Assembly (NCBI GenBank): GCA_036679605.1
Contig: JAZDCZ010000363.1
Coordinates: forward strand, 1-13,642
Direction: 5' to 3'
From: Gemmatimonadota bacterium
GTDB taxonomy: Bacteria > Gemmatimonadota > Gemmatimonadetes > Gemmatimonadales > GWC2-71-9
DNA: 13,642 nucleotides
The stretch's first letter is position 1. Every line of letters begins with the position of its first letter. The translations under genes and the position numbers were made by a program. This document shows positions 1-13,642 of the stretch, one piece after another. The notes under the pieces were generated by a model. It had not been told where the DNA came from and searched no databases. It saw only the letters and a program-made list of their open reading frames with translations.

Positions 1-654
1 CCACGGCTGCGAATGAACTCTGGAGTTGGGATATCACGAAGTTGAAGGGCCCGGCGAAATGGACTTACTACTACCTGTACGTGATTCTGGATGTTTTCAG
101 CCGCTACGTGGTGGGCTGGATGGTAGCGCAGCGGGAGTCAGCAGTGCTGGCCAGGCGGCTGATCGAGGAGACGTGCGAGCGACAGGGAGTCACCCGAGAT
201 CAGTTGACCTTGCATGCGGATCGCGGTTCATCGATGAGGTCTAAGGCCGTGGCACTGCTGCTGGCCGACCTGGGTGTGACGAAGACGCATTCGAGGCCGT
301 ACACGTCGACCGACAATCCATTTTCGGAGGCGCAGTTTAAGACGATGAAGTATCGGCCGCAGTTTCCCAGTCGGTTTGGATCCCTGCAGCATACGCGTGG
401 CTTCTGCGGGCCTTTCTTTGATTGGTACAACACCGAGCACCGCCATAGCGGACTGGCGATGCTGACGCCTCAGGCGGTGGTTTGGACAGGAAAAGCGAAC
501 CCGTAGAATGCCCTGAGAGCGCTGATCTCGAAATGGCGAGAGGAAGGAGTACCCCCGAATCCGCAGTTACCGGGACGCGAAACGAGCAGGAGTCACTTGT
601 AAATGCTCCTTAAACTCCAACCCGTGTGTGTCTCACTTTCATTGACAGGTACCG
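1..654 (+). mobile_element. IS3-family insertion sequence A (right part; left part outside window)
   Basis: Carries the DDE transposase at <3-506, followed by an IR-like end GTGTCTCACTTTCATTGACAGGTACCG (628-654). The end is either the CA at 647 or about 654. Confidence 0.7.
3..506 (+). CDS. IS3-family DDE transposase (rve integrase core), 5'-partial, C-terminus possibly degenerate
   Basis: Frame is open from position 3 (TAANELWSWDITKLKGPAKWTYYYLYVILDVFSRYVVGW). DDE motifs are WDIT, HADRG and NPFSEAQFKTMK, followed by WYNTEHRHSG. Confidence 0.9.
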   Translation, partial: TAANELWSWDITKLKGPAKWTYYYLYVILDVFSRYVVGWMVAQRESAVLARRLIEETCERQGVTRDQLTLHADRGSSMRSKAVALLLADLGVTKTHSRPYTSTDNPFSEAQFKTMKYRPQFPSRFGSLQHTRGFCGPFFDWYNTEHRHSGLAMLTPQAVVWTGKANP

Positions 655-1453: not shown

Positions 1454-1981
1454 GAGCTACTCAGTCGCTGCGAACGCGGTGAGGTCGGCGCAGTCATCGT
1501 GCTAAAGCTTGACCGCCTGACTCGCCAGACCCGCCACCTCTTGAGCATCGTCGAAGATCTGTTCTTAGCCAAGAACATTGAGCTTCACAGTGTCAGCGAG
1601 AGCCTGGATACCTCAACCCCACATGGTCGCTTTGTCCTGACGTTGTTCGGCGGCCTCGCCCAGATGGAGCGAGAGTTGATTGCCGAGCGTACAAGAGTTG
1701 CTCTCGAGTTCAAGCGCCAACAGTGCCAGCCTACCAGTCATGCCCCTCTAGGCTTCCGTGCAAATGGCAAGCGACATCGGATGCTGCCGGTGCCGGAGGA
1801 ACTTGAGACCGTGCGGCACATCCTCACGCTATGGCGCTGCGGTTCTTCTTATGCTTCCATCGCTGCCAAGCTCAACGTTGAGGGAGTCAGAACAAAGCGA
1901 GGCGGTCGCTGGCACCGTTCGACCATCTCAAGGGTGGTGAAGCGACGTGATCTGTACGTGGAGGTTCTAGGGCGACTCTAG
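1454..1981 (+). pseudogene. Serine recombinase (resolvase catalytic domain plus C-terminal recombinase/HTH), N-terminus cut off by IS
   Basis: In frame from the IS junction: ELLSRCERGEVGAVIVLKLDRLTR...LDTSTPHGRFVLTLFGGLAQMERELIAERT...SYASIAAKLNVEG...GGRWHRSTI. The catalytic YxRVS motif is missing. ORF track 1499-1981. Confidence 0.88.
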
Positions 1982-2708: not shown

Positions 2709-3572
2709 CTAAGAACCCGAACCTTTCTTCTTCTTCTTCTCCTGCCGTGGCGCTCGCCTGGTCCAAATCACGATTACACCGCACCGGGAATCACTACTTA
2801 GAAAGTCCGCTGGTGTCTCTGCAGGACCGCGGTAGACCTCTACCGCTTCCACGTCGTTTGCCGCCACCATCTGGTTAATGATCCCAGGCCCCTCCCTGAG
2901 GAGCGCCCCGTCGATGTAGACGTTCACACCGCACGCCTGTTTGTCCACATCCCGAGGGTCTGGACAGCCTGTGCCAGTGCATGCACTTCCGAATAGCGTT
3001 GCCAGCGGTGGACTAGCCCGAACCATTCGGATGCTCCACTGCCGACCGCCCTTCGACACGACGCGGACCCCGGCCATATTGCGAAAGATGTCAGTCACCT
3101 GTCCCGGATTCTTCGCCTCGATCTCTTCACGGGTCAGAAACACTCCCCATCCCCGGCGCTTCCGCTCGTAGAATCCCCGCAGCGGACCCGGCGCAAATGG
3201 CTCGGCTTCGCCCACTACGGCAACCGTATCAAGCACGAGTGCGTCCTGAGGTAGTATCACTGTCAATTCAATGTCTGCAACGGCGGCAGGAACTTCGAAT
3301 TCAGGTGTAACTGTCGGAGAGTACCCGACTCGGCGCACATGGAGCAGGAACCGACCAGGCTCGGCGTGCAACAGGAACCCTCCGTCGCTACCCGAAACCG
3401 CGCTCGCGACTGCACTCCCGTCCACACCCATCAGCATAACGAACGCTCCATGGATCGCCGTCAAGGTCGAATCGGCGCGAACCGTACCACGAATTAAGGT
3501 CTGGGAGTGAAGGGCTGAGCTTGCCGCGAGCAAGCTCAGGATGGTTACGGCAACGCTGACTGTGCATCTCAT
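2709..3572 (-). CDS. Secreted carboxypeptidase-regulatory-like domain plus TonB-dependent receptor plug domain protein (no beta-barrel), 287 aa
   Basis: ATG at 3572 with GGAGG RBS. Signal peptide ends ...ALHS-Q. IRGTV...SDGGFLL...VRRVGY marks the Ig-like domain. GFYERKRRG.G.FLTREEIE, VYIDG, VEAVEVYRGPAETP and CGVIVIWTR mark the plug region. Confidence 0.82.
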   Translation of the reverse strand: MRCTVSVAVTILSLLAASSALHSQTLIRGTVRADSTLTAIHGAFVMLMGVDGSAVASAVSGSDGGFLLHAEPGRFLLHVRRVGYSPTVTPEFEVPAAVADIELTVILPQDALVLDTVAVVGEAEPFAPGPLRGFYERKRRGWGVFLTREEIEAKNPGQVTDIFRNMAGVRVVSKGGRQWSIRMVRASPPLATLFGSACTGTGCPDPRDVDKQACGVNVYIDGALLREGPGIINQMVAANDVEAVEVYRGPAETPADFLSSDSRCGVIVIWTRRAPRQEKKKKKGSGS

Positions 3573-3615
3573 TCTTTCACCTCCAGTATACGAAACGCCG
3601 ATAGAAACTAACCGC

Positions 3616-4809
3616 TTACCGAGTGGCGCGGCGCGGCAGCCGAAACCTCTGAACATACGGCACATCCTCACTGCTCACTCCAACGCCATACAGGTACCGC
3701 ACACCGATCGCAAGAGTCCTTGGATCTACGTCCTCCCCTCCCTGCACATCGATTGTTCCCAGAAACCGACCAGTCCGCTCGAACACGTCAAACGTAGCAA
3801 GAATGTTGGGGCGTTCTCCCGATGGTACTTGCACCCAGATTCGGCCGAGACGGTCCGAAACGAGTCCAAGAACAGGGGGATGCATCAGGGGGATCTTGAG
3901 CTTCCGTTTGAACCGTTCCGAACTCGCTTGCGCTGTCTTGGCATAGCGCTCAATCAGTGCTGTGGCGGAATCGTGCGCCAACGCCGCCTCTACAGAGCCT
4001 ACCGGCATTGCCTGAACATCTCTGCCAATGCTTCCGATGCGTCGTCCAGACCTGTCGCTGATCGTTAGATCGTACTGATCACCAATGGCAGTGACAAGCC
4101 ACCCGTTTGGCAAGATCGTCCACGCCAGGTCAGCCGTGAATGGCTGATATAGGTAACCTGTATAGCCACGCGCTTCTCCGCTCACTCCGATCATCGGTCG
4201 ATAGTAATGAGGCAGCGGTCGCCTTTCACGCGTTACCGCCGCGTCTCGTACATCAACGCCCTCTAAGTATCGTTCGATCGATGTGTCTCGTACGTTGCGC
4301 CAAGCGGCATAGAAGCGTCCCGATTCCCCGCTCACCAACGGCTCTCGTAGGAATCCGAATCCCTTGATTGAGCGGGAACCTTCATACGCTCCATCAGCGT
4401 CAAATATTGCATACAGTTGTTTGCCCGCATCGCCCACGACAACTTGGTAATCCGCCAATACGGCGATTGATACCGGTCTCTGGAACTCTCCCGGCCCCCA
4501 ACCTTCACTGCCAATCGTGCGCCAGTATCGGCCCTCATCATAGACCTGCACCCGAGAAAACAATCCATCAAGTACGTATACACGATCACTGTCATCAACT
4601 GCTATGTTCGCGATTCGTCCAAATGAATACGCATCCTCGTCCTCGAGTTTCCCCCCAATCATAATATCGGGATTAGTGCTCAAGTGACTCTCTCCCCAAA
4701 CAGCAACGGATCTCTGACTGGGAACGGCTGTCCCTTGTGCTTCGCTGCTCTGCGCAGCTGCCAGGAAGGAAAGCAGCATCCAGAAGTAGCGGGAAGGACG
4801 CACATGCAT
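3616..4809 (-). CDS. Secreted 6-bladed beta-propeller (NHL / DUF5128-like) protein
   Basis: GGAGG RBS and Sec signal (...SSEA-Q). Motifs FGRIANIAVDDSDRVYVLD, IGSEGWGPGEF, DRLGRIWV, FDVFERTGRFLG, DVPYVQRFRL. Confidence 0.82.
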   Translation of the reverse strand: MHVRPSRYFWMLLSFLAAAQSSEAQGTAVPSQRSVAVWGESHLSTNPDIMIGGKLEDEDAYSFGRIANIAVDDSDRVYVLDGLFSRVQVYDEGRYWRTIGSEGWGPGEFQRPVSIAVLADYQVVVGDAGKQLYAIFDADGAYEGSRSIKGFGFLREPLVSGESGRFYAAWRNVRDTSIERYLEGVDVRDAAVTRERRPLPHYYRPMIGVSGEARGYTGYLYQPFTADLAWTILPNGWLVTAIGDQYDLTISDRSGRRIGSIGRDVQAMPVGSVEAALAHDSATALIERYAKTAQASSERFKRKLKIPLMHPPVLGLVSDRLGRIWVQVPSGERPNILATFDVFERTGRFLGTIDVQGGEDVDPRTLAIGVRYLYGVGVSSEDVPYVQRFRLPRRATR

Positions 4810-4833
4810 CGTTAAACCTCCGAAATTTGAACG

Positions 4834-5868
4834 CTATTTATACAACTGGAGCTGGTACCGCACCAGTTCATAACCGTTGATGCTTCTAACCACATACAAT
4901 TCACCTACATCACTCGACGCCACGAGACTCATCGCAAAGGGCACTTCACTTGCCGATATGACATTGCCGTCTTTACTTAGGATGCGAATCGTTGTGACAT
5001 CAGTTTGCGGCGAGTACGTCAAATAGATCATGTAATCGCCGACCCACCCCACACCTACACAGCGCTCGAATACGTCCACCAAACGTCGACCTTCATTTGC
5101 CACGTCAACCGCAAACTCTTCAGCCCGCTTCATCTCCACCTCACGATTCCACCATGACTCAGGCTCTCCTGCTAGGGAGTATTGGGAGACTTCGAAGGGA
5201 TTCAGCCTCACGTGAGTTAGATCGGCGCCAGGGCCGGCACTGGCAAGTCCGAGGCCCCAACCGAGGAGTATCGAGTCAGCCGGGTTCAATTCGCGCGGTC
5301 GCCCGAAGGTACCGACGGCAGAGAGATCAGCGGTATAAGTGTGCAACACCGTAGTTATACTGTCCGCCCATCCAAGTACGACCAAATAGCCGGAGGCAAA
5401 GAACACCTGTGATATACGACGGAATCGGTCAGGTAGTTCGCAGTCCTCCGTATGTTTCAGCGTGGCGTCGTACCGTCGACAGTGAGACGACGAACCCGAG
5501 AAGAGCCATACAGTGCCATCGCCGGATACTGTCACGTGCTCTGGCCAGGACCCGTCGACGAAGCGTCGTAACCGAAGCCCGCGGGCCACATCGCCTACCG
5601 TATCAACCACATGAAGTCGCAAGCTAGTGCGATCCAGCACCAGAAGTTGCGAGGAAGGCGAACGGGCTGCACTAGCGAGCGAACGTATGCCCGTGCTATC
5701 GCCTAATTCGATCGCATACTGCTGCACCAACTGACCGGGAACTCGATCGGCGCTGCGGCATCCATGCAAGCAAATGCAGGTGTACGACATCAGTGTCAAA
5801 AGCAGGGTGTTAACTCTCCCTGGCCGTCTATGTGGTTCATGGCTGGTGCGCAACGTTATCTCTCGCAA
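4834..5868 (-). CDS. Putative beta-propeller-type lipoprotein / hypothetical protein (start uncertain)
   Basis: 344-aa ORF co-oriented within the operon, with possible lipobox LHG-C. Repeated blade-like strands: LLVLD...LHVVDTVG, VTVSGDGTVWL, LHTYTADL...FG, IRILSKDG, LVRYQL. The TTG start has no clear RBS. Confidence 0.62.
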   Translation of the reverse strand: MREITLRTSHEPHRRPGRVNTLLLTLMSYTCICLHGCRSADRVPGQLVQQYAIELGDSTGIRSLASAARSPSSQLLVLDRTSLRLHVVDTVGDVARGLRLRRFVDGSWPEHVTVSGDGTVWLFSGSSSHCRRYDATLKHTEDCELPDRFRRISQVFFASGYLVVLGWADSITTVLHTYTADLSAVGTFGRPRELNPADSILLGWGLGLASAGPGADLTHVRLNPFEVSQYSLAGEPESWWNREVEMKRAEEFAVDVANEGRRLVDVFERCVGVGWVGDYMIYLTYSPQTDVTTIRILSKDGNVISASEVPFAMSLVASSDVGELYVVRSINGYELVRYQLQLYK

Positions 5869-5970
5869 TTGAAAGTACCGTCATTAGAGACTATAGGAGT
5901 GTGGCCGACAACATCAGGAGTCAAAGCGAAAACACATCAACTGCAGCTCCTCACGCCGATCTCAGGTTCC

Positions 5971-6342
5971 TCATTCCAACGTGATAACTCGGGCCACCTG
6001 CAGACGGTTAGCTTCACCATGGCCACTGTACACGACTTCAATTTGCGTTCCACTACATGTCCTTACGGCGAAAGCGTCCTCAGAAATCTGCTTACCTTTG
6101 ATCACGGCTCCGTCTGCAAGAACATGGACATCGCCGGTGTATTCTCCTAACGCTGGAATCCTGCACCTGTCAAAAGGCATACATCCAAGGAGCGGGTCTT
6201 GGGTGCAGGTCCAGTAGCCGCTTTCGAAGCTCCCGAAGCAAGTGTCTTGGTTACATTGCCAACAGGGACCAGCCTCCGATGGCGTGGCCGTTACGACTAT
6301 TCCTGTCAGACTGATAGCAATCGCTACTGCAAGTCTCTTCAT
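5971..6342 (-). CDS. Small secreted Cys-rich protein, 123 aa
   Basis: ATG at 6342 with GGAGGTGAGC upstream. Signal MKRLAVAIAISLTGIVVTATPSEA. Six Cys in the first ~36 mature residues plus one later (VRTC). Confidence 0.8.
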   Translation of the reverse strand: MKRLAVAIAISLTGIVVTATPSEAGPCWQCNQDTCFGSFESGYWTCTQDPLLGCMPFDRCRIPALGEYTGDVHVLADGAVIKGKQISEDAFAVRTCSGTQIEVVYSGHGEANRLQVARVITLE

Positions 6343-6375: not shown

Positions 6376-6403
6376 GGTGCATCCAACCATTGCTACGGTT
6401 GCG
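6376..6403 (-). promoter_or_regulatory. Degenerate ECF-type promoter copy (CGCAAC-N17-GCACC)
   Basis: Same AAC...GCACC architecture as the four strong copies, 33 bp upstream of the 6342 ATG. The spacer is 17 bp and lacks TTCRTG. Confidence 0.4.
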
Positions 6404-6469
6404 ATGTTTCCGGACATTGCCGAACCACACTCCCTGTACCAATGCAAAATTAGGTTATTGATCACCCGG

Positions 6470-8047
6470 CTATCCACCCGCCCTTCCTGCCGCGAGTAAT
6501 TCCTTCAAAGTCCGAGCCTTCCGTAGAAGTTTTATTACACAGCGAACCTGAACGTCATCTCTTGCTCGGTCGCGCAATTCCGCCGGCCGACCAAGCAGAT
6601 ACCTAGTCAGCTGATAATGGACCTGCCGTGCGACAGATTCTCGAGCGGCTCGCGACAAGTGAATGGGTACGGAAATACCACGTGCACGGGACCGATCAAG
6701 GAGTTTATCGATCATGACATCCGTGACTTCTAGATTGTTGTGGGAAACCATGCCTGCCGCTATCACGTCGAAGGGGTAGAGTGCTATAATTTCGCGGAGA
6801 GCTTGCGCTTCATCATCCGGCACAGTGACAAACAAATCATCGCCAGACTTAGCCGAGTCGGCGGCCACAACTATATCAGGAACGATACGACCTTCACCAC
6901 CAAGCACTCGCCCGGCATCTGACACGTACACTGTCGTCGCAGATGGCCAATCGCCACGTCCCGTCAATTGCAAACCTGTCGTCAACTTGCTCTGATGACG
7001 GTGATCAATCCTAGATATAGACCGGCCGCTCGGTGTGTACAGACGCGCAATAGTAATCCGCACTGCGTGGCTATCAGAGAGCTGCCGGAAAAACGAACTC
7101 ACGCCCTTTCCGAAGCTCGGGGTGCCAACGAGGAGTGCTCGGTCATGGTCCTGAAGGGCCCCAGCAACTACTTCGGCCGCGCTCGCCGTAGCTTCATTCA
7201 GAAGGACAACTAGGGGCATGTCGGCCCACCGTTGCGGGTGGCTTGCCTTGTAAGTTCGTGGCATCCCCGGCCCGTGCCCTTTCATCGTCACCACCGTTTG
7301 AGCGCTGTCAAGAAACAGATCAGCGATGCCAACGGCCTCGTAGTGGCTCCCGCCAGGGTTGTCTCGCAGGTCAAGAATGAGCCCCCGCGCGCCTCTGGCT
7401 TCCAGCCGTTCTACCGCTGCCCTTACCTCGTCAGTCGCGCCTTGGGTGAAAGACCTAACTCTTATGTACCCGATTCCGGGAGCGATATTGATCGGCTCGT
7501 CAACGCCTCCTACGTGGACGAAATCACGAGTGGCTTCTATGTGGAGCGGCTCCGCTACTCCCGGGCGGAGCACCGTGAGTTTAAGGCGTGTGCCCAGCTC
7601 TCCTCGTGTAGCGCTCGCCACCTGTTGCGTAGTCCATCCTGTTGTCGACTCATTATCCACCTCGATAATCCTGTCACCCGGCTTTAGTCCCGCGCGGGCG
7701 CTGGGAGAGCGTGGCAGCGGATGCACAACGGCGATCCAGCGACCTAGTGATTCGATTTCCATTCCAATGCCAGCGAAATTGCCGGTCATCCGGAAGAGTA
7801 GGCCGTCAAGCCGGTCGCCGCGGAGCAAGGTTGTGTAGGGATCGTTTAGGCTTGCCAGCATGCCGTCGATGGCCATGTCGTAGAGGTCATCGGAGTCGAG
7901 CGAATCGACGTAATGCTCGGTCAGCATTGCGACGACAGTTCTCAACCGGCCTTCTGCGGATACGTTTCGAACCGCCTGCAGTTGAGAAAGCAGAGAACTG
8001 GGCACCGTCAAAACAACGATGAGCGATGTCAAAGTTGTGCTACCCAT
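6470..8047 (-). CDS. S41 family C-terminal processing peptidase (CtpA-like, PDZ domain)
   Basis: GMLASLNDPYT, FAGIG (PDZ), AGLKPGDRI, DLRDNPGG, TASAAEVVAGALQD (catalytic Ser), FGKG (catalytic Lys), TPSGRSI, IVPD. ATG at 8047 begins a signal-like N-terminus. Alternative start is GTG at 8086. Confidence 0.93.
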   Translation of the reverse strand: MGSTTLTSLIVVLTVPSSLLSQLQAVRNVSAEGRLRTVVAMLTEHYVDSLDSDDLYDMAIDGMLASLNDPYTTLLRGDRLDGLLFRMTGNFAGIGMEIESLGRWIAVVHPLPRSPSARAGLKPGDRIIEVDNESTTGWTTQQVASATRGELGTRLKLTVLRPGVAEPLHIEATRDFVHVGGVDEPINIAPGIGYIRVRSFTQGATDEVRAAVERLEARGARGLILDLRDNPGGSHYEAVGIADLFLDSAQTVVTMKGHGPGMPRTYKASHPQRWADMPLVVLLNEATASAAEVVAGALQDHDRALLVGTPSFGKGVSSFFRQLSDSHAVRITIARLYTPSGRSISRIDHRHQSKLTTGLQLTGRGDWPSATTVYVSDAGRVLGGEGRIVPDIVVAADSAKSGDDLFVTVPDDEAQALREIIALYPFDVIAAGMVSHNNLEVTDVMIDKLLDRSRARGISVPIHLSRAARESVARQVHYQLTRYLLGRPAELRDRARDDVQVRCVIKLLRKARTLKELLAAGRAGG

Positions 8048-8112
8048 ATCGTCCGTGCGTTGAGGATTAACCCCGTTCAGGGGCACGGCGCCATTGCTGC
8101 CTACTCAATACA

Positions 8113-8139
8113 GGTGCCACGAACAACCGAAAGGTCACA
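8113..8139 (-). promoter_or_regulatory. Putative ECF sigma promoter for the S41 gene
   Basis: Minus strand reads TGTGAC-CTTTCGGTTGTTCGTG-GCACC, one of four near-identical copies. Confidence 0.75.
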
Positions 8140-8318
8140 CGCCAAATTCGATCACGTTTGCACACAGGGCTCAAGTTGATGCTTTGCAACAAGTTACGTG
8201 TCAGGGCGATAGGATCGGAAGGAACAAGGACCTCTCCGCCGCTCGCTGAGGGGTCCGTTGTTGCGAGCGCTCTCTCCTTTAGAGATGGGTTGGTCTGAGT
8301 GACCGGGATGGCGTCCTA

Positions 8319-8345
8319 TGTAACCTTTGCGGGTTTCGTGGCACC
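8319..8345 (+). promoter_or_regulatory. Putative ECF sigma promoter for the peptide/beta-propeller pair
   Basis: TGTAAC-CTTTGCGGGTTTCGTG-GCACC, 48 bp upstream of ATG 8394. Confidence 0.75.
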
Positions 8346-8393
8346 AAGTAAGGAGAGAGACAAGGTTCCTTTCTCATTCCATGTGAGGTTCCG

Positions 8394-8600
8394 ATGAAAG
8401 CTCAGTCGATGTGCAAGATCTTCTTTGCCGTAGGGGTCTTGGCCGTGTTACCCGTCGCCCTTACGAGTTCGGGTCAATCCATTAGGGTTACAATCGTTGA
8501 CGCATGCGCTCAAGGCGGTTGCCGCTTTTCACCAGGAGAGTGGTGTGACAGTGAAATACCTGACGGGCAACCCATGTTCAATTATGTGGACCGCCCCTAA
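8394..8600 (+). CDS. Small exported Cys-containing peptide, 68 aa (NVEALA-like organisation)
   Basis: GAGG RBS, hydrophobic N-terminus, then IVDACA and a short tail with GGC...WC. Lies after a promoter motif and before a beta-propeller lipoprotein gene. Confidence 0.72.
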   Translation: MKAQSMCKIFFAVGVLAVLPVALTSSGQSIRVTIVDACAQGGCRFSPGEWCDSEIPDGQPMFNYVDRP

Positions 8601-8683
8601 AACAGTCGCTCTTGCCCCGATCCTCTTGTTGTACAACGCTACAGTGACTGGATACTGTACCTTCTACTCTGGGGCTTCGTGGT

Positions 8684-9769
8684 ATGCGCACGCTGCCTGT
8701 TAGGAATGCTGCTTCAATCCTGCTAGTCGTTGCAGGGTGCGGAGACTGGGAAGGAATTCAACGTAGGGCACCAGCGGAGATCGAGCACAGCAACATCGAG
8801 GTCGTTGAGATAGGTGCTCGGATACTTTCCGAGTCGGAGGTGCTGGGTCTTCCATCCGACATCGCAATCATTGGAAACAGATTGGTCGTCATCGATATGA
8901 GCGGCGACCCGGCGCTTCTGGTATTCGATCGCGCTAGCGGAGTCTTCGAACGCTCATTGGGCGGGCCCGGAGAGGGTCCAGGAGAATTCAAAGTAGCTTG
9001 GTCGCTCGATCCGGTTCCGGGCAGTGACCTGGATCTGTGGGTCTACGACATATCGTTAACGAGACTCACGAAGATCAGTTTGGTGCCTAATCCTGTCCAA
9101 GCTAGAGATGTCAATGGCGAGATAGTTAGCCTTCGGTCCGAAGGGATGCCAACCGGACCGCTTTGGCTCGACGATGATACGATAGTCAGCCTAGGCCTCT
9201 TTCCTGGTGGGCGCCTGGCGTTCTTCGATAACTCAGGAGCGCAGACGGCCAGCACAGGAAGTGTCCCACCGGGTCCTTCAAACGTGCCAGCCAGTGTAAG
9301 ACAGCATGCCTATCAAGCCACGATGGTGGTGCACCCGCGGCGACGGATGCTGGCAGCGGTCACAAGACGCGCCAGCAAGATTGAGATCTACCGGTCAGAC
9401 GGTTCGCCCATCGTGCAAGTTGATGGACCGCTTCCATTTGAGGTGACGTATGCGCTCAGGTCGAGTCCACGTGGGCCCGTGTTTAAGACGGAGCCCTATC
9501 ACCGTTTGGGCTACATTGACGGGACCGGGTCAAGTGAGTACATCTTTGCGTTGTTCTCCGGCCGAACGTGGGGAGAGTTCTCAGACCGAGCGGGCTTCGG
9601 AAGATTCGTACACATATTCGATTGGGATGGCACCTTCAAGAGGGCACTTCGCCTTGATCAGGATGTCCTTAGTATCGCCGTGGACAAAGAATCGACGACG
9701 TTGTACGCTGTGCGGCATTATCCGCATCCTGCAATACTGCTATACTCGCTTGTCGACGAGGTGCTGTGA
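8684..9769 (+). CDS. TolB-like 6-bladed beta-propeller lipoprotein (BF3164-like)
   Basis: Lipobox VAG-C19. Motifs LGGPGEGPGEF, LWVYD, YIFALFSGRT, VHIFDWDG, IAVD...LYAV. Confidence 0.85.
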   Translation: MRTLPVRNAASILLVVAGCGDWEGIQRRAPAEIEHSNIEVVEIGARILSESEVLGLPSDIAIIGNRLVVIDMSGDPALLVFDRASGVFERSLGGPGEGPGEFKVAWSLDPVPGSDLDLWVYDISLTRLTKISLVPNPVQARDVNGEIVSLRSEGMPTGPLWLDDDTIVSLGLFPGGRLAFFDNSGAQTASTGSVPPGPSNVPASVRQHAYQATMVVHPRRRMLAAVTRRASKIEIYRSDGSPIVQVDGPLPFEVTYALRSSPRGPVFKTEPYHRLGYIDGTGSSEYIFALFSGRTWGEFSDRAGFGRFVHIFDWDGTFKRALRLDQDVLSIAVDKESTTLYAVRHYPHPAILLYSLVDEVL

Positions 9770-9816
9770 TCACGAGACGTGACTTCCACTGTGCTGCCGC
9801 AATCGAAGTTGGCCGA

Positions 9817-11979
9817 TTACCGTCTTGCTATCGCCCCGAACGATGTAGACGCGAGAGCTTCTGCCACACGCATAACGTCATTTAGGGAATTGCTAACGAA
9901 CCGCAAGCGAACTGACTTGTCCAAGATCACATACATGGGTGTTTCCCATAGACCAAGGGCTTGCCGAATCATTCCCCGCACGTCCTGAAAAATCGGTAAC
10001 CTTCTGACCGAGATAAGCGCTCGAACATCGGCAGACGGCGCGTTATGGGTAACGATCAAGACCCGGCCACCTCCTACCTCAAGCCGATCGGCCACCGTTT
10101 GCAAGAGCGGTAGCTCATTCCGACACGGTGCACATACCGACGAGTGGAAGGCGAGCAGCGTGATCCTCCCGGCTGCCAGCTCGTGCAGACCTTGCACTTG
10201 ATCTGTTGAGTCCAGAAGTTCCACATCTCTGGAGATACTCTTGTTAATAGTTTGAGCGAGAGCGCGCCGCCACATCTCGAGACGAGCACGTTCGGCGGCT
10301 TGCTCCCACTGTTCGCGATTGATGAGTTCGGCGGCAATCGCGATGGTGGAGTCGGCGGAAGCCGAGGCTACATTGGGATCCACTGCCACCCGCGCCAACA
10401 TCTCGATGGCACCTGCGGTATCGGCAACTTGTAGTCTGATGTCGGCAATTATTCTTGAGGCGGAGGGATCCCAACCAGAAGCCGCGGCTGCCATCAACAT
10501 ATCCTGGCCGGCCTCGATCTCACCAGTTTCTACTAGCATTTTGCCCAGAGGCACCCGAATCTTGTTGCGTCTTGTTTCGTCGCGGCCTTCCTGTTCACCG
10601 ACGGCCACATATAGATCTCGGTTCCGGGTCGTTTCATCGTCGATGCGAAGGAGTTGTGCCTGGAGCTGCTCTACGGCGTTGGATCTGAGTTCTGACACCT
10701 CGCCCATCCGCCGTGCTATTTCCAGAGCCGTCCAGGGCTCGATCGCGATACGGCGGTCGGCCCACCGCACAATGCCGTCTATATCTTGAGCGGCCAACGC
10801 CGTACGAAAACCCTGCCGTGCTAGCCTCACATGTGCCCGATTGGACACACTCCAAAGACCTTCCAACTCGATCAGCAGGCGATCTTTGGATCTACCATAC
10901 TGACGAACATTATCTTGGACACGCAGCTCGATAGCGAGCGAATGCTCTGGTGCCTGTGCTAGCAAACGCTCGCGCCAATATCGTATGGTACTAGGGTCCG
11001 CTTGTGTGGTTAGGGCAAACAAATACATACCAGCTATGTCGTCATCATCAAGTGATGGCTGTGCGGCAGATCTCGTTTGTAGCCGTGCGAAACGCTGAGA
11101 GTGACGAGCACGGAGGCTATCGATGCTGTTCGTGCTAGCTAGAGCCGCCTCGAACCCGTTCAACCTGACCCACGCGTCGGGTAGAAGTGGGTAGAGTTCC
11201 GCGGCAATCCTCGCAGTCTCAAATGCCGCCTCCCAGTTGCGACCGATCAAGTCGTTCTGCTTCTGGACAAGGGCGCGATATTCCGGTTTGCCGGTGTCGT
11301 CGTGAGTCATGAGCTCCCACAGCTTCCGGCCGTTGCTATCAACCCGCTGGATGGCTGAGTCCTCCACTGCAAATACCGCATATACCACTGAGTCAGGCAG
11401 AATGAATGTTCCGGCGAACTTCCGTCGGCTCTTCTTGGAAAGCTCGCCCACCACAATCTGTTGCATTCCGTCGTTGTAGGCTCGATCGCCAGGTCTCCGA
11501 TAGCGAGCCCGCAGGACTAGCCGCTCCTCGCCAGACAACATCGACGTGGCGCGATACTCGACTGTTATTCGATCTCCCGTTCTCGGTTTCTGCGGCGTCA
11601 AGTGCAACTCGCCTGTCGTCAGCTCGGCACCCAGGTCGGAAGATGAAACGACAAACAGGAGGCCCACTCCCGCAAGCAGGACGAGTGTAGCGGCGACCAT
11701 CATCGGACGCGCTACTGATCGGTGCCGCAGTGGGTTGTTCGTTGGCAGCTCGACTCTGTCGCCCGCCTGGTTTCTTGCGAGGATCTGCCCCAATAGCTCT
11801 GGCCGAGGGGTCTTTAGCGGAAGTGACTGTGCCTGCTGGGTTAGCTCACGAATGGATGCTAAAGTGCGTTGACACGACCGGCACTTGGCCACGTGAGCTG
11901 CCGTGCGCTCGCGTAGTCTTCCGTTCAATTCTTGGTCAGCGAGGTCGTTCAGTCGGGAACGCGACGGGTGCCAAATCAT
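9817..11979 (-). CDS. Anti-sigma factor (zf-HC2) fused to an extracytoplasmic TlpA-like thioredoxin protein, 720 aa
   Basis: N-terminal HPS...L..LAD.EL...HVAKCRSC (HxxxCxxC). TM helix MMVAATLVLLAGVGLLFVV. Helical middle region. C-terminal LLAFHSSVCAPCRNELP...WETPMYVILDK. ATGA overlap with the sigma gene. Confidence 0.85.
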   Translation of the reverse strand: MIWHPSRSRLNDLADQELNGRLRERTAAHVAKCRSCQRTLASIRELTQQAQSLPLKTPRPELLGQILARNQAGDRVELPTNNPLRHRSVARPMMVAATLVLLAGVGLLFVVSSSDLGAELTTGELHLTPQKPRTGDRITVEYRATSMLSGEERLVLRARYRRPGDRAYNDGMQQIVVGELSKKSRRKFAGTFILPDSVVYAVFAVEDSAIQRVDSNGRKLWELMTHDDTGKPEYRALVQKQNDLIGRNWEAAFETARIAAELYPLLPDAWVRLNGFEAALASTNSIDSLRARHSQRFARLQTRSAAQPSLDDDDIAGMYLFALTTQADPSTIRYWRERLLAQAPEHSLAIELRVQDNVRQYGRSKDRLLIELEGLWSVSNRAHVRLARQGFRTALAAQDIDGIVRWADRRIAIEPWTALEIARRMGEVSELRSNAVEQLQAQLLRIDDETTRNRDLYVAVGEQEGRDETRRNKIRVPLGKMLVETGEIEAGQDMLMAAAASGWDPSASRIIADIRLQVADTAGAIEMLARVAVDPNVASASADSTIAIAAELINREQWEQAAERARLEMWRRALAQTINKSISRDVELLDSTDQVQGLHELAAGRITLLAFHSSVCAPCRNELPLLQTVADRLEVGGGRVLIVTHNAPSADVRALISVRRLPIFQDVRGMIRQALGLWETPMYVILDKSVRLRFVSNSLNDVMRVAEALASTSFGAIARR

Positions 11980-12530
11980 CGTTCATCACCGATTACGCGG
12001 CGGAGGAGTTCCCGTGCGCGATGGAGTCTCATCCTAGAAGCTCCACTCGTGATTCCTAGCATGACTGCAATCTCCGAATGTGAATACCCTTCCGACTCCT
12101 TCAACACGAAGACGACACGAAATGACGTGGGAAGGCTTTTGAGTGCTTCTTCAAGCGTCACTCGCTCACAGTATCGTAACGGAGGGTCTGTCCGTGCATC
12201 TTGCGGTAGCTCGTCGAGCGACATCTCGGCCCTTCTCCTGTCGGAGCGGAGTTTTATCAATGCGGCTCTCACCGCAACCTTTCTTATCCACGCCCCAAGA
12301 TTTCCGCGGCCCTCATATTTCCGGAGGGCGTTCGGAAGGTCTAGAAAGATATTTTGCACGACATCTTCTGCGTCCATTTGGGAGTGCACCAAGTAGTAAG
12401 CGACCGTGTATACGACCCCTGCGTATCGTTTGTATAATCGTGCGATGGTTTCCGGGTCCCCGGACCGTGCACGATTCAAGAATACGGAGAACTCGCGCTT
12501 GCCAAGGCCTGGTGTCACGTCAACCGGCAT
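11976..12530 (-). CDS. ECF-type (group 4 sigma-70) RNA polymerase sigma factor
   Basis: Region 2 reads DAEDVVQNIF...AWIRKVAVR. Region 4 reads LP..FRVVFVLKESEGYSHSEIAVMLGI..GASRMRLHRAR. ATG 12530 is preferred over GTG 12560, which abuts the predicted -10 box. Confidence 0.93.
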   Translation of the reverse strand: MPVDVTPGLGKREFSVFLNRARSGDPETIARLYKRYAGVVYTVAYYLVHSQMDAEDVVQNIFLDLPNALRKYEGRGNLGAWIRKVAVRAALIKLRSDRRRAEMSLDELPQDARTDPPLRYCERVTLEEALKSLPTSFRVVFVLKESEGYSHSEIAVMLGITSGASRMRLHRARELLRRVIGDER

Positions 12531-12562
12531 TATCTGCGAGGCTCCGTAGCCCACATACACAT

Positions 12563-12589
12563 GGTGCCATGAACCAGACGAAAGTTACA
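12563..12589 (-). promoter_or_regulatory. Putative autoregulatory ECF promoter of the sigma/anti-sigma operon
   Basis: Minus strand reads TGTAAC-TTTCGTCTGGTTCATG-GCACC, 32 bp upstream of ATG 12530. Confidence 0.75.
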
Positions 12590-12916
12590 TGGGTCCGCTG
12601 GACGGCCATCCGGACCAAACCGGTGCCCGCCGTTCCGTCGAGTCGAGGAGATGCTGCCAAGGCAGATGAAGTTTGGACGGGGCTCTAGGGGCGCCGGGAT
12701 CGTGAATAAGGCTATGGTGATCATGGCGACCTATAGATACAGCACGAACCGCAGTATCGCGAGGCCGATCGTCAGAGTTTTCACGTCTCAACAACACATG
12801 ATCGTTCATGGGACACCTAGCCAGTGCGCCCAACCGAGCTAACCTCTTATCTACTAGAAACTTAGACGAACCGAGCAAACGGACTGAGTGTCCCGATCCT
12901 GCACCAATACGGTGCA

Positions 12917-12943
12917 TGTGACCTTTTTGCGATTCGTGGCACC
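12917..12943 (+). promoter_or_regulatory. Putative ECF sigma promoter for the six-Cys peptide gene
   Basis: TGTGAC-CTTTTTGCGATTCGTG-GCACC, 147 bp upstream of ATG 13091. Confidence 0.72.
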
Positions 12944-13090: not shown

Positions 13091-13300
13091 ATGGCGAAGT
13101 TCAACCAGGACCAGACGGGCATGTTGCAAACAGCCGGGCTCACAACCGATGAGATCAAGTCTCTGGAGACCGCTGGTATTGACCCGGCCTGCTTTCTCAA
13201 GTGTGCCGTAGCGTTTGCGGCTTGCATCGCGGCGGGAGGTAGCGTCATGGAATGCGCAAAGGCACAAGCCGGGTGCATCGCTGCCTGCGTCCTTGGTTGA
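13091..13300 (+). CDS. Six-cysteine peptide, 69 aa; candidate bacteriocin/RiPP precursor
   Basis: Strong AGGAGG RBS (13080-13085). Polar leader-like half, then an Ala-rich core with C-x3-C-x6-C-x9-C-x6-C-x3-C. Confidence 0.8.
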   Translation: MAKFNQDQTGMLQTAGLTTDEIKSLETAGIDPACFLKCAVAFAACIAAGGSVMECAKAQAGCIAACVLG

Positions 13301-13602
13301 AGGAGCGGAGAGAGTTCGACCTGATACGGCAGCGGCCCCACGGTGCTTCCATGTGGCTTCGGTTGTTGTTGGCGACGTGCGCCGATGGCTGTGAGTATGG
13401 AGAGGGCCTTAGATCGACCGATGGGTCCCTACAATCACACCAGTGAACAGTAAAGTGCTTCACCGGCGGACGACGGTGCACTCCCTAAACGGAGTTTTCA
13501 ATTTCAGGAGGTTTCCCAATGGCAGACCCCCCTCTCTGCCAATATGAGTGAGACACCTTTCTACTGTTAGTTTAGTGAGCAGGGCGATGAAGGAGAATGG
13601 GG

Positions 13603-13642
13603 ATGGACACGATGGATGTGGCTCTCTCTGATCATGGTCTGG
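13603..13642 (+). CDS. Possible start of the next gene (runs off the window)
   Basis: AAGGAG at 13590-13595, then ATG at 13603 in a frame open to the end (MDTMDVALSDHGL). The frame choice is ambiguous. Confidence 0.25.
   Translation, partial: MDTMDVALSDHGL

Follow-up and report, generated by a model that had tools for sequence, protein, structure and literature searches.

Small, self-contained regulons run by an autoregulated extracytoplasmic function (ECF) sigma factor are ordinary and already documented (Todor et al., 2020; PMC7776599). DdvS of Myxococcus xanthus, for instance, fires four local promoters (PMC6061681), and class I zinc anti-sigma factors hold their sigma factors until they are proteolysed, as in the DdvA-DdvS pair (PMC11506125). 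Limited cross-talk among paralogous alternative sigma factors (PMC6056542) and T-tract selectivity (PMC5758882) have likewise been described, and the ECF promoter consensus has been resolved as T-36 G T A A C-31 C-30 / C-13 G-12 T-11 C-10 (Todor et al., 2020, Table S1; PMC7776599). The present analysis concerns a 13,642-nt stretch of a Gemmatimonadota genome (assembly GCA_036679605.1), referred to throughout as the window, which is the entire contig JAZDCZ010000363.1 (C294 below) and carries genes for an ECF sigma factor and a putative anti-sigma factor together with four near-identical 27-bp boxes. With a probability of roughly 0.78, these boxes are promoters for the ECF sigma factor of their own cassette, which is flanked by insertion sequences (IS), and their spelling is tuned to that sigma factor and not to its two paralogs.

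The pattern proposed in the original prediction, TGTRACYTTY-N6-TTCRTGGCACC, is matched at all four of its sites without a single mismatch (Table 1), with 17 of 27 positions invariant as counted there, and no further match was found at up to three mismatches. None of 200 shuffles gives any match to the pattern, although this control is circular because the pattern was derived from these very sites. In a genome-wide motif check (6.72 Mb), a matrix built from three boxes gave the one left out the top rank in three of four trials; in the remaining leave-one-out trial, the omitted box was among five sites scoring at least as high, the other four being the sigma promoters of paralogous cassettes and their two copies on contig C212. 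All four boxes are intergenic and face the next gene, namely the S41 protease gene, the peptide and propeller pair, the sigma gene, and the six-Cys peptide gene, just as had been claimed. Over the 40 nt upstream of each box, pairwise identity amounts to only 7-20 bases, which argues that the boxes are not recent copies of one another.

The boxes fit the pan-ECF register unshifted, with TGTRAC at -36 to -31, a spacer of 17 bp, and C-13 A-12 C-11 C-10, and thus have the bipartite -35/-10 structure and 16-18-bp spacer of ECF promoters. The spacer length is indeed fixed, but the figure of exactly 16 bp given earlier runs only to G-14. Likewise, GCACC is not in itself an atypical -10 element, being one base off the GCATC usual in the lineage; the oddity lies at -11, where C stands in place of the consensus T in all four boxes. 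TTCGT was rejected as a -10 core, since it would stand 12 bp from AAC, and the CACC register is the one with which residue 84 of the sigma factor covaries. Transcription had been expected to start about 5-8 nt past GCACC; the starts are now predicted at the ninth base after each box, at the edge of that range, because the start codon follows the box at a distance of 8 nt in five relatives (C13, L048, L052, L063, and L066), as in leaderless transcripts, and a purine occupies this offset in 10 of 12 cassette boxes. Given the start predicted for box 3, the sigma factor probably begins at the ATG and not at the upstream GTG.

Table 1. Predicted promoters, genes, and flanking repeats of the window.
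Feature	Position	Strand	Remarks
IS3-type transposase gene, 3' end (left flank)	1..506	+	rve + rve_3; 98% identity to end of contig C83
Second operon, whole	2709..6342	-	four genes
Carboxypeptidase-regulatory/TonB-plug protein, second operon	2709-3671	-	
DUF5128 propeller, second operon	3616-4809	-	
Unassigned 344-aa protein, second operon	4834-5868	-	
Secreted 7-Cys protein, second operon	5971-6342	-	
Box 5, weak candidate promoter before second peptide/propeller operon	6376..6403	-	CGCAAC, 18-bp spacer, TGCACC
S41/CtpA-Prc protease with PDZ, downstream of box 1	6470..8086	-	
Box 1, ECF-type promoter before S41 protease	8113..8139	-	TGTGAC / GGCACC; predicted start ~8104
Box 2, promoter before Cys peptide and propeller	8319..8345	+	TGTAAC / GGCACC; predicted start ~8354
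Secreted Cys peptide (module gene)	8394..8600	+	signal-like N-terminus, AC-x-C-x-C core; 16-orthologue alignment
TolB-like/DUF5128 six-bladed propeller, probable lipoprotein	8684..9769	+	PF15869, E 1.6e-22
Putative anti-sigma factor, 720 aa	9817..11979	-	overlaps sigma stop
ECF sigma factor, 184 aa from ATG 12530	11976..12530	-	longest open reading frame from GTG 12560
Box 3, autoregulatory promoter of sigma/anti-sigma operon	12563..12589	-	TGTAAC / GGCACC; predicted start ~12554
Box 4, promoter before six-Cys peptide	12917..12943	+	TGTGAC / GGCACC; predicted start ~12952
Orphan six-Cys peptide behind box 4	13091..13300	+	
Right-flank repeat: left end and first codons of IS transposase gene	13530..13642	+	90-100% identity to stretches on C26, C296, C243, C18

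The window sigma factor contains Sigma70_r2 (residues 42-110) and r4_2 (135-186) domains (Pfam) and scores above the TIGR02937 cut-off; with sigma2 and sigma4 domains only and a length of 184-194 aa, it has the build of a group 4 (ECF) sigma factor of about 200 aa. Its contact residues in RpoE numbering are D56, V79, R80, I84, R171, M172, and H175, the numbering having been transferred through an AlgU alignment in which the residues match the published RpoE list at an offset of one (Todor et al., 2020, Table S1). For comparison, 60 related sigma factors were assembled, 48 of them paired with the same anti-sigma family and 12 being further matches, after removal of seven duplicate metagenome loci and one truncated frame; the sigma factor of locus L051 (genome G149) falls below both box thresholds and counts only in the denominator and the tree. 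A search of genome contigs for loci related to the window sigma factor returned only distant sigma factors (22-36% identity), which were not used. The same 27-bp box was found at 13 bits or more within 280 nt upstream of 21 of the 60, against 1 of 120 control regions, so an autoregulatory box before the sigma gene is conserved in relatives. At 9.5 bits or more, a box precedes 39 of the 60; the usual -10 of these relatives is GGCATC, with variants such as CGCGTT.

Covariation between sigma residues and promoter bases was assessed across these 39 pairs with a matrix that left the tested positions -34, -31, -12, and -11 free. Arginine or lysine at residue 171 accompanies C-31 in 14 of 14 cases, against 2 of 25 for other residues, over at least five separate clades (a count whose bootstrap support is not fully settled), and the measured preferences for C are 0.88 for R171 and 0.98 for K171 (Todor et al., 2020; PMC7776599). 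For D84, the partner base is G-12 in 4 of 4 cases, and its measured preference is CG (0.62); I84 prefers CA (0.46, the top of 16 dinucleotides), and R84, present in both paralogs, prefers C-12 (0.49 when four cells of the published table are summed; PMC7776599). Among the 25 ECF-like sigma factors listed in the genome, only that of the window has I84. The ECF register, the conservation of the box before related sigma genes, and this base-residue covariation together favor the proposal that the window sigma factor drives the transcription units of its cluster.

The genome holds three more sigma/anti-sigma pairs of the same family, on contigs C357, C422, and C13. The first two repeat the module layout and form a clade with the window sigma factor (99/88); the third is a more remote relative with just one box, of the ordinary TGTAAG/GGCATC type. 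With a ten-box matrix, every one of the 14 sites that reach 23.6 bits belongs to these cassettes or is one of the two C212 copies of the C422 sigma promoter; at 20 bits or more there are 17 real against 3 control sites, 10 of the 17 being training sites. The spelling at -12/-11 is AC in the window (4/4), CC in C357 (3/3), and CA in C422 (5/5, including two boxes held out of training), a partition by cassette with an exact chance of 3.6e-5, or 3.6e-3 when only the 3x3 positional homologues are considered; at -33, C357 has A (3/3), C422 has G (5/5), and the window is split two and two. The positional homologues of box 1 are C357:225601 (-10 GACCCC) and C422:7535 (AGCCAC), those of box 2 are C357:225793 (CGCCCC) and C422:7685 (GGCCAC), and box 3 occupies the same place relative to the sigma gene in both sister cassettes. 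Upstream of box 1 and of its C357 homologue, 35 of 40 bases agree, although each box has the -10 of its own cassette. The sigma factors of the window, C357, and C422 differ at residues 84 (I, R, R), 56/79 (D/V, D/F, V/Y), and 172 (M, V, M), and it is to residues 84, 56/79, and 172 that Table S1 of Todor et al. (2020; PMC7776599) assigns -12, -11, and -33, respectively. Other relatives keep T-11 in 33 of their 35 boxes, but not one of the 12 cassette boxes has it; TTC at -20 to -18, in contrast, is present in 9 of 12 cassette boxes and 1 of 35 others. Locus L078 has three boxes with a shared spelling of its own. Positive selection on the C357 and C422 sigma factors was rejected, the ratio of nonsynonymous to synonymous divergence being below 0.25 in every sigma segment.

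Co-residence of the window with C357 and C422 is suggested by similar depth (14.2 versus 15-18 in the long pieces of C357) and composition, that of the window being unremarkable; the ends of C357 and C422 share a 114-bp overlap, and the data are consistent with, though not proof of, three cassettes in one genome. In another family, loci L147, L151, and L153 carry tandem arrays of two or three sigma/anti-sigma cassettes, and neighbouring sigma factors in L147 and L153 have differently spelled boxes (e.g., GGCATA versus GTCATC). A separate 47-bp conserved element lies directly upstream of box 1 (8157..8203, minus strand) and also before C357:225601, C422:7535, and C422:2911 (L001 ~7620-7666; L002 7554-7600 and 2929-2975), with no other convincing match in the genome or the fetched relative loci. 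It has been kept upstream of these four homologous promoters although the neighbouring coding DNA is saturated, and is a candidate for either the site of a second regulator or recently converted DNA.

In the mechanism proposed here, a membrane anti-sigma factor with a zinc motif would keep the sigma factor inactive until an envelope signal arrives. The trigger would probably be an envelope or thiol-redox cue relayed through the secreted Cys peptide, the propeller, and the outer thioredoxin domain, and would lead to proteolysis of the anti-sigma factor as for DdvA-DdvS (an analogy only). Domain 4 of the freed sigma factor would read TGTRAC, R171 contacting C-31 and M172 accounting for T-34 and for the tolerance of G-33, while domain 2 would read C-13 A-12 via I84 and the unusual C-11 probably via D56/V79. 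All four boxes would then fire, raising the sigma factor's own operon (positive feedback), the peptide and propeller, the S41 protease, and the six-Cys peptide, with probable read-through of the S41 transcript into the second operon. After duplication, the sigma factor and promoters of each cassette would have drifted together to a new spelling with less cross-activation, and we infer some insulation between the paralogs, a point on which part of the evidence is opposed. A more far-reaching model, offered tentatively and with the odds somewhat against it, holds that these are three mutually orthogonal post-duplication ECF switches in which the -10 core was rewritten together with the sigma factor, the near-universal T-11 was abandoned, all three rely on a third recognition element (TTC) outside the known code, and the sensor half recombines as a block, so that one peptide signal could be rewired to different insulated outputs.

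Several observations weigh against the reading of the boxes as cassette-tuned promoters. On the promoter side, for 21 of the 60 related sigma genes no box in the upstream 280 nt reaches 9.5 bits, and two C422 promoters have flanks in common (76% over 115 nt). The genome bin has 6.3% contamination, which bears on the co-residence of the window with its sister cassettes. On the recognition side, the related sigma factors are kin and not independent, and the 84/-12 link, taken by itself, is weak under the strict threshold (260 of 5000 permutations). The partner of S172 is C-34 in 10 of 10 cases here but G-34 (0.83) in published experiments, so the code is not fully portable, and M171 accompanies G in 3 of 3 cases here but prefers T (0.63) in the test backbone (PMC7776599). 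At -11, sigma factors with E56 retain T (6/6), the text of Todor et al. (PMC7776599) ties an acidic residue 56 to A and not to C, and in genome G002, whose sigma factor carries G56 and M84, a CACC site stands back-to-back with the CATC autoregulatory promoter, which indicates that C-11 is tolerable without D56. Locus L150 combines R84 with A-12, and R84 in the test backbone has no preference for CC (0.067) over CA (0.086) (PMC7776599), so the paralogs might read the window boxes. In light of the R84 values, the G002 site, E56 with T-11, and L150, partial cross-talk is quite possible.

These same R84 and G002 data lend some weight to a single cross-wired regulon, in which the boxes are real ECF promoters read about equally by all three sigma factors and their spelling reflects tolerated drift or local copying. 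Such a regulon would also fit the TGT-AC, T-tract, and C-13/C-10 shared by all 12 boxes, the TTC shared by nine of them, and the near identity of the C357 and C422 sensor halves; it nevertheless appears unlikely, since -12/-11 is partitioned perfectly by cassette across promoters with unrelated flanks, and the sigma factors differ at the residues assigned to -33, -12, and -11. That the boxes are instead read in trans by another sigma factor, the C13 paralog or some other ECF protein, with the local one a mere passenger, is very improbable: the pool of 25 ECF-like sigma factors and the similar sites on C165 and C212, distant from any intact cassette sigma gene, would allow it, but the C13 sigma factor has E171 and a box with G-31 whereas all 12 cassette boxes have C-31, I84 is confined to the window sigma factor, and box spelling tracks the neighbouring sigma factor across the phylum. 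Equally slim is the chance that the boxes are operators of a different DNA-binding protein or remnants of copied intergenic DNA. A gene for a helix-turn-helix protein does adjoin the module in several relatives, and the conserved element upstream of box 1 points the same way; however, no gene of that kind is present in the window, the boxes hold no palindrome, all 12 cassette boxes are strictly oriented toward the next gene, the flanks of the four window boxes are unrelated, and both canonical ECF geometry and residue-base covariation speak for a sigma factor.

Beyond the four boxes, the weaker copy that had been noted before the third peptide operon (box 5) does exist, but it is marginal as a promoter. 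Its spacer is one base longer than in boxes 1-4, it has no T-tract, and its score is 9.4 bits, compared with 29-32 for the other four; random 128-nt windows reached this level in 137 of 5000 cases and shuffled sequences in 47 of 2000 (p about 0.025). In C422, a strong box (6674) precedes the second propeller operon. The second operon of the window may be reached by read-through from box 1, the S41 promoter, as a crude scan found no terminator-like site between the S41 gene and this operon. General scans for sigma-70 promoters (5 versus 6.0) and terminators (10 versus 10.8) remained at chance level.

Outside the cassettes, contig C165 carries two intergenic, back-to-back CGTAAC/GGCACC sites (61885, minus; 61921, plus) facing two putative lipoprotein genes, in a span (C165:61859-61947, equivalent to L004 7860-7948) whose geometry recurs in G002. 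It is about an even bet that this pair comprises distant targets of the window sigma factor, in which case the regulon would not be purely local. Likewise, C212:129233-133618 (L003) contains the C422 sigma promoter twice, followed in one case by a truncated sigma fragment and in the other by a redoxin/peptide/propeller run, and this duplication may extend the C422 regulon. The loose pattern YGTRAC-N16-GCACC occurs at 31 real versus 26 control sites, so the core hexamers alone do not define targets. In other genomes, 4 of 400 have one site with one mismatch, all inside open reading frames (three moeA-like) and with no sigma gene in the surrounding 3-kb loci; these, and one viral match with no related genes beside it, were treated as chance.

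The window anti-sigma factor has an N-terminal HxxxCxxC zinc motif (C33, C36), one hydrophobic helix (93-111), and a large outer region whose C-terminus is a TlpA/ResA-type thioredoxin domain with a full CxxC (C616, C619); together with its gene at +1, these features are those of a putative class I zinc anti-sigma factor. The zf-HC2 profile stays below its cut-off, and the profile of the family matches the N-terminal domain of DdvA (8rlz, E 0.0049) and ResA/TlpA. Of 14 family proteins, nine have the zinc motif and five, all of them shorter (530-678 aa), do not; the thioredoxin CxxC is complete in all three cassettes of this genome versus CxxA/S in the other 11 of 14. At loci L128, L131, L132, L139, L141, L143, L144, and L146, the family match starts at about residue 55-120, with little or no zinc domain, and no sigma match was found in the fetched regions; these eight proteins are possibly stand-alone sensor forms. 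The nearest protein clusters to the window anti-sigma factor are mostly from Gemmatimonadota, and, among 401 genomes of the phylum, 43 carry the family, frequently next to genes for the peptide and propeller, DUF5128 propeller orthologues adjoining the anti-sigma gene in many loci. In the module Cys peptide, C38, C43, and C51 are invariant across 16 orthologues. A predicted peptide-propeller complex scored 0.28 against a mark of 0.32 and was weighed neither way.

Comparison of C357 with C422 gives synonymous divergences of 1.25-1.9 for the sigma gene and 0.75 for the zinc domain, versus 0.13-0.30 for the rest of the anti-sigma gene, 0.29 for the propeller gene, and 0.15 for the mature peptide (98% identical). 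The sensor half is thus near-identical (L001 7872-12014 versus L002 7836-11977), whereas the sigma factor, zinc domain, and promoters are old. In this one pairwise comparison, the simplest reading is that the sensor half was recently exchanged between older output halves, with breaks that would lie near anti-sigma residue 60 and the end of the peptide signal. The window cassette is saturated against both sisters and therefore probably senses a different ligand.

With regard to layout, the peptide and propeller genes face the sigma/anti-sigma pair, and the IS ends on both sides suggest a composite-transposon-like cassette. At its left edge lie a second IS3-type transposase fragment and a truncated serine recombinase (626-1423 and 1499-1981, plus strand); the right-flank repeat opens, on C243, an IS3-like frame that we take to be orfA. 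A subtilase gene takes the place of the S41 protease gene in C357, and a gene for a DsbA-like protein does so in C422, which marks the protease as exchangeable cargo. An open reading frame at 8497-8703 was rejected as a gene or frameshift, because it has no paralog and the overlapping module peptide aligns end-to-end with its orthologues. The orphan peptide behind box 4 has a symmetric C-x3-C-x6-C-x9-C-x6-C-x3-C core preceded by a leader ending in AG. No homologue was found (atlas matches were all below 0.9), and no processing genes were seen up to the IS end; the peptide presumably resembles helix-loop-helix bacteriocins with a double-glycine-type leader.

What appears to be new is the paralog-specific respelling of the boxes, with matching changes in sigma contacts and the loss of T-11. 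The escape of duplicated regulators from cross-talk is usually inferred across species; here it can be approached within one genome, in three close ECF paralogs with 12 cognate promoters and with changes at residues already assigned to the differing bases. The system makes the recognition code testable at -11, which in the published account has so far only been modelled, and at the unexplained spacer element, and it is a possible source of orthogonal sigma-promoter parts. Searches found no paper on these Gemmatimonadota sigma factors, for which Datasets S1-S2 of Todor et al. could hold related pairs, and none on insulation between paralogous ECF sigma factors; the boxes give the first promoter model that they turned up for a widespread, undescribed Gemmatimonadota signalling module.

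Among described systems, DdvS-DdvA (PMC6061681; PMC11506125) offers a close parallel, with an ECF sigma factor, a single-pass zinc anti-sigma factor with a large periplasmic part (whose N-terminus the window anti-sigma family matches, E 0.0049), four local promoters in one island, one of them autoregulatory, and a GTAA-type -35. The window falls outside that system as defined by its periplasmic TPR-CHAT region and GTAA-n16-CGT promoter: its promoters read GTRA-n18-CAC, with spacing 2 nt longer and a CAC core, the outer domain ends in a TlpA-type thioredoxin and has no CHAT match, the cargo comprises peptides, propellers, and a protease instead of CBASS (cyclic oligonucleotide-based antiphage signalling system) and CRISPR (clustered regularly interspaced short palindromic repeats) genes, and there are paralogous cassettes with respelled boxes. 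ECF231 (Casas-Pastor, 2021) shares the TGTAACCTT -35 and a zinc-finger anti-sigma factor with a single transmembrane helix at +1; its Bacteroidetes/Acidobacteria range, periplasmic HEAT repeats in the anti-sigma factor, adhesin neighbours, and -10 of GTTTCCAC set it apart from the window. No TGTAAG or GGCAT group was found in the searched part of the group text of the same study's supplement (PMC7826278), as distinct from its hidden Markov models, and that part lists Gemmatimonadetes only as minor members of five other groups.

The regulon is small, linked, and mobile in the way often seen for local ECF regulators (Todor et al., 2020; PMC7776599), and it follows the code of that study in its pan-ECF -35 and in the 171/-31 and 84/-12 contacts, departing from it in the non-T base at -11 in all three paralogs, the pairing of S172 with C-34 in the lineage, and an extra TT(C) spacer element at -21 to -18, outside the code's coverage. 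The sigma-I paralogs of Clostridium thermocellum (PMC6056542) are likewise homologous alternative sigma factors whose cross-talk is limited through promoter differences; they are not of the classical ECF class I, and the divergence here lies in the -10 core and is accompanied by mobile cassettes and recombining sensor halves. Lastly, the window boxes share with sigma V/M/W/X promoters of Bacillus subtilis (PMC5758882) a T-tract directly after the -35 and, unlike them, carry another T element, TTC, roughly 9 bp beyond the first, which is confined to the three-member clade.

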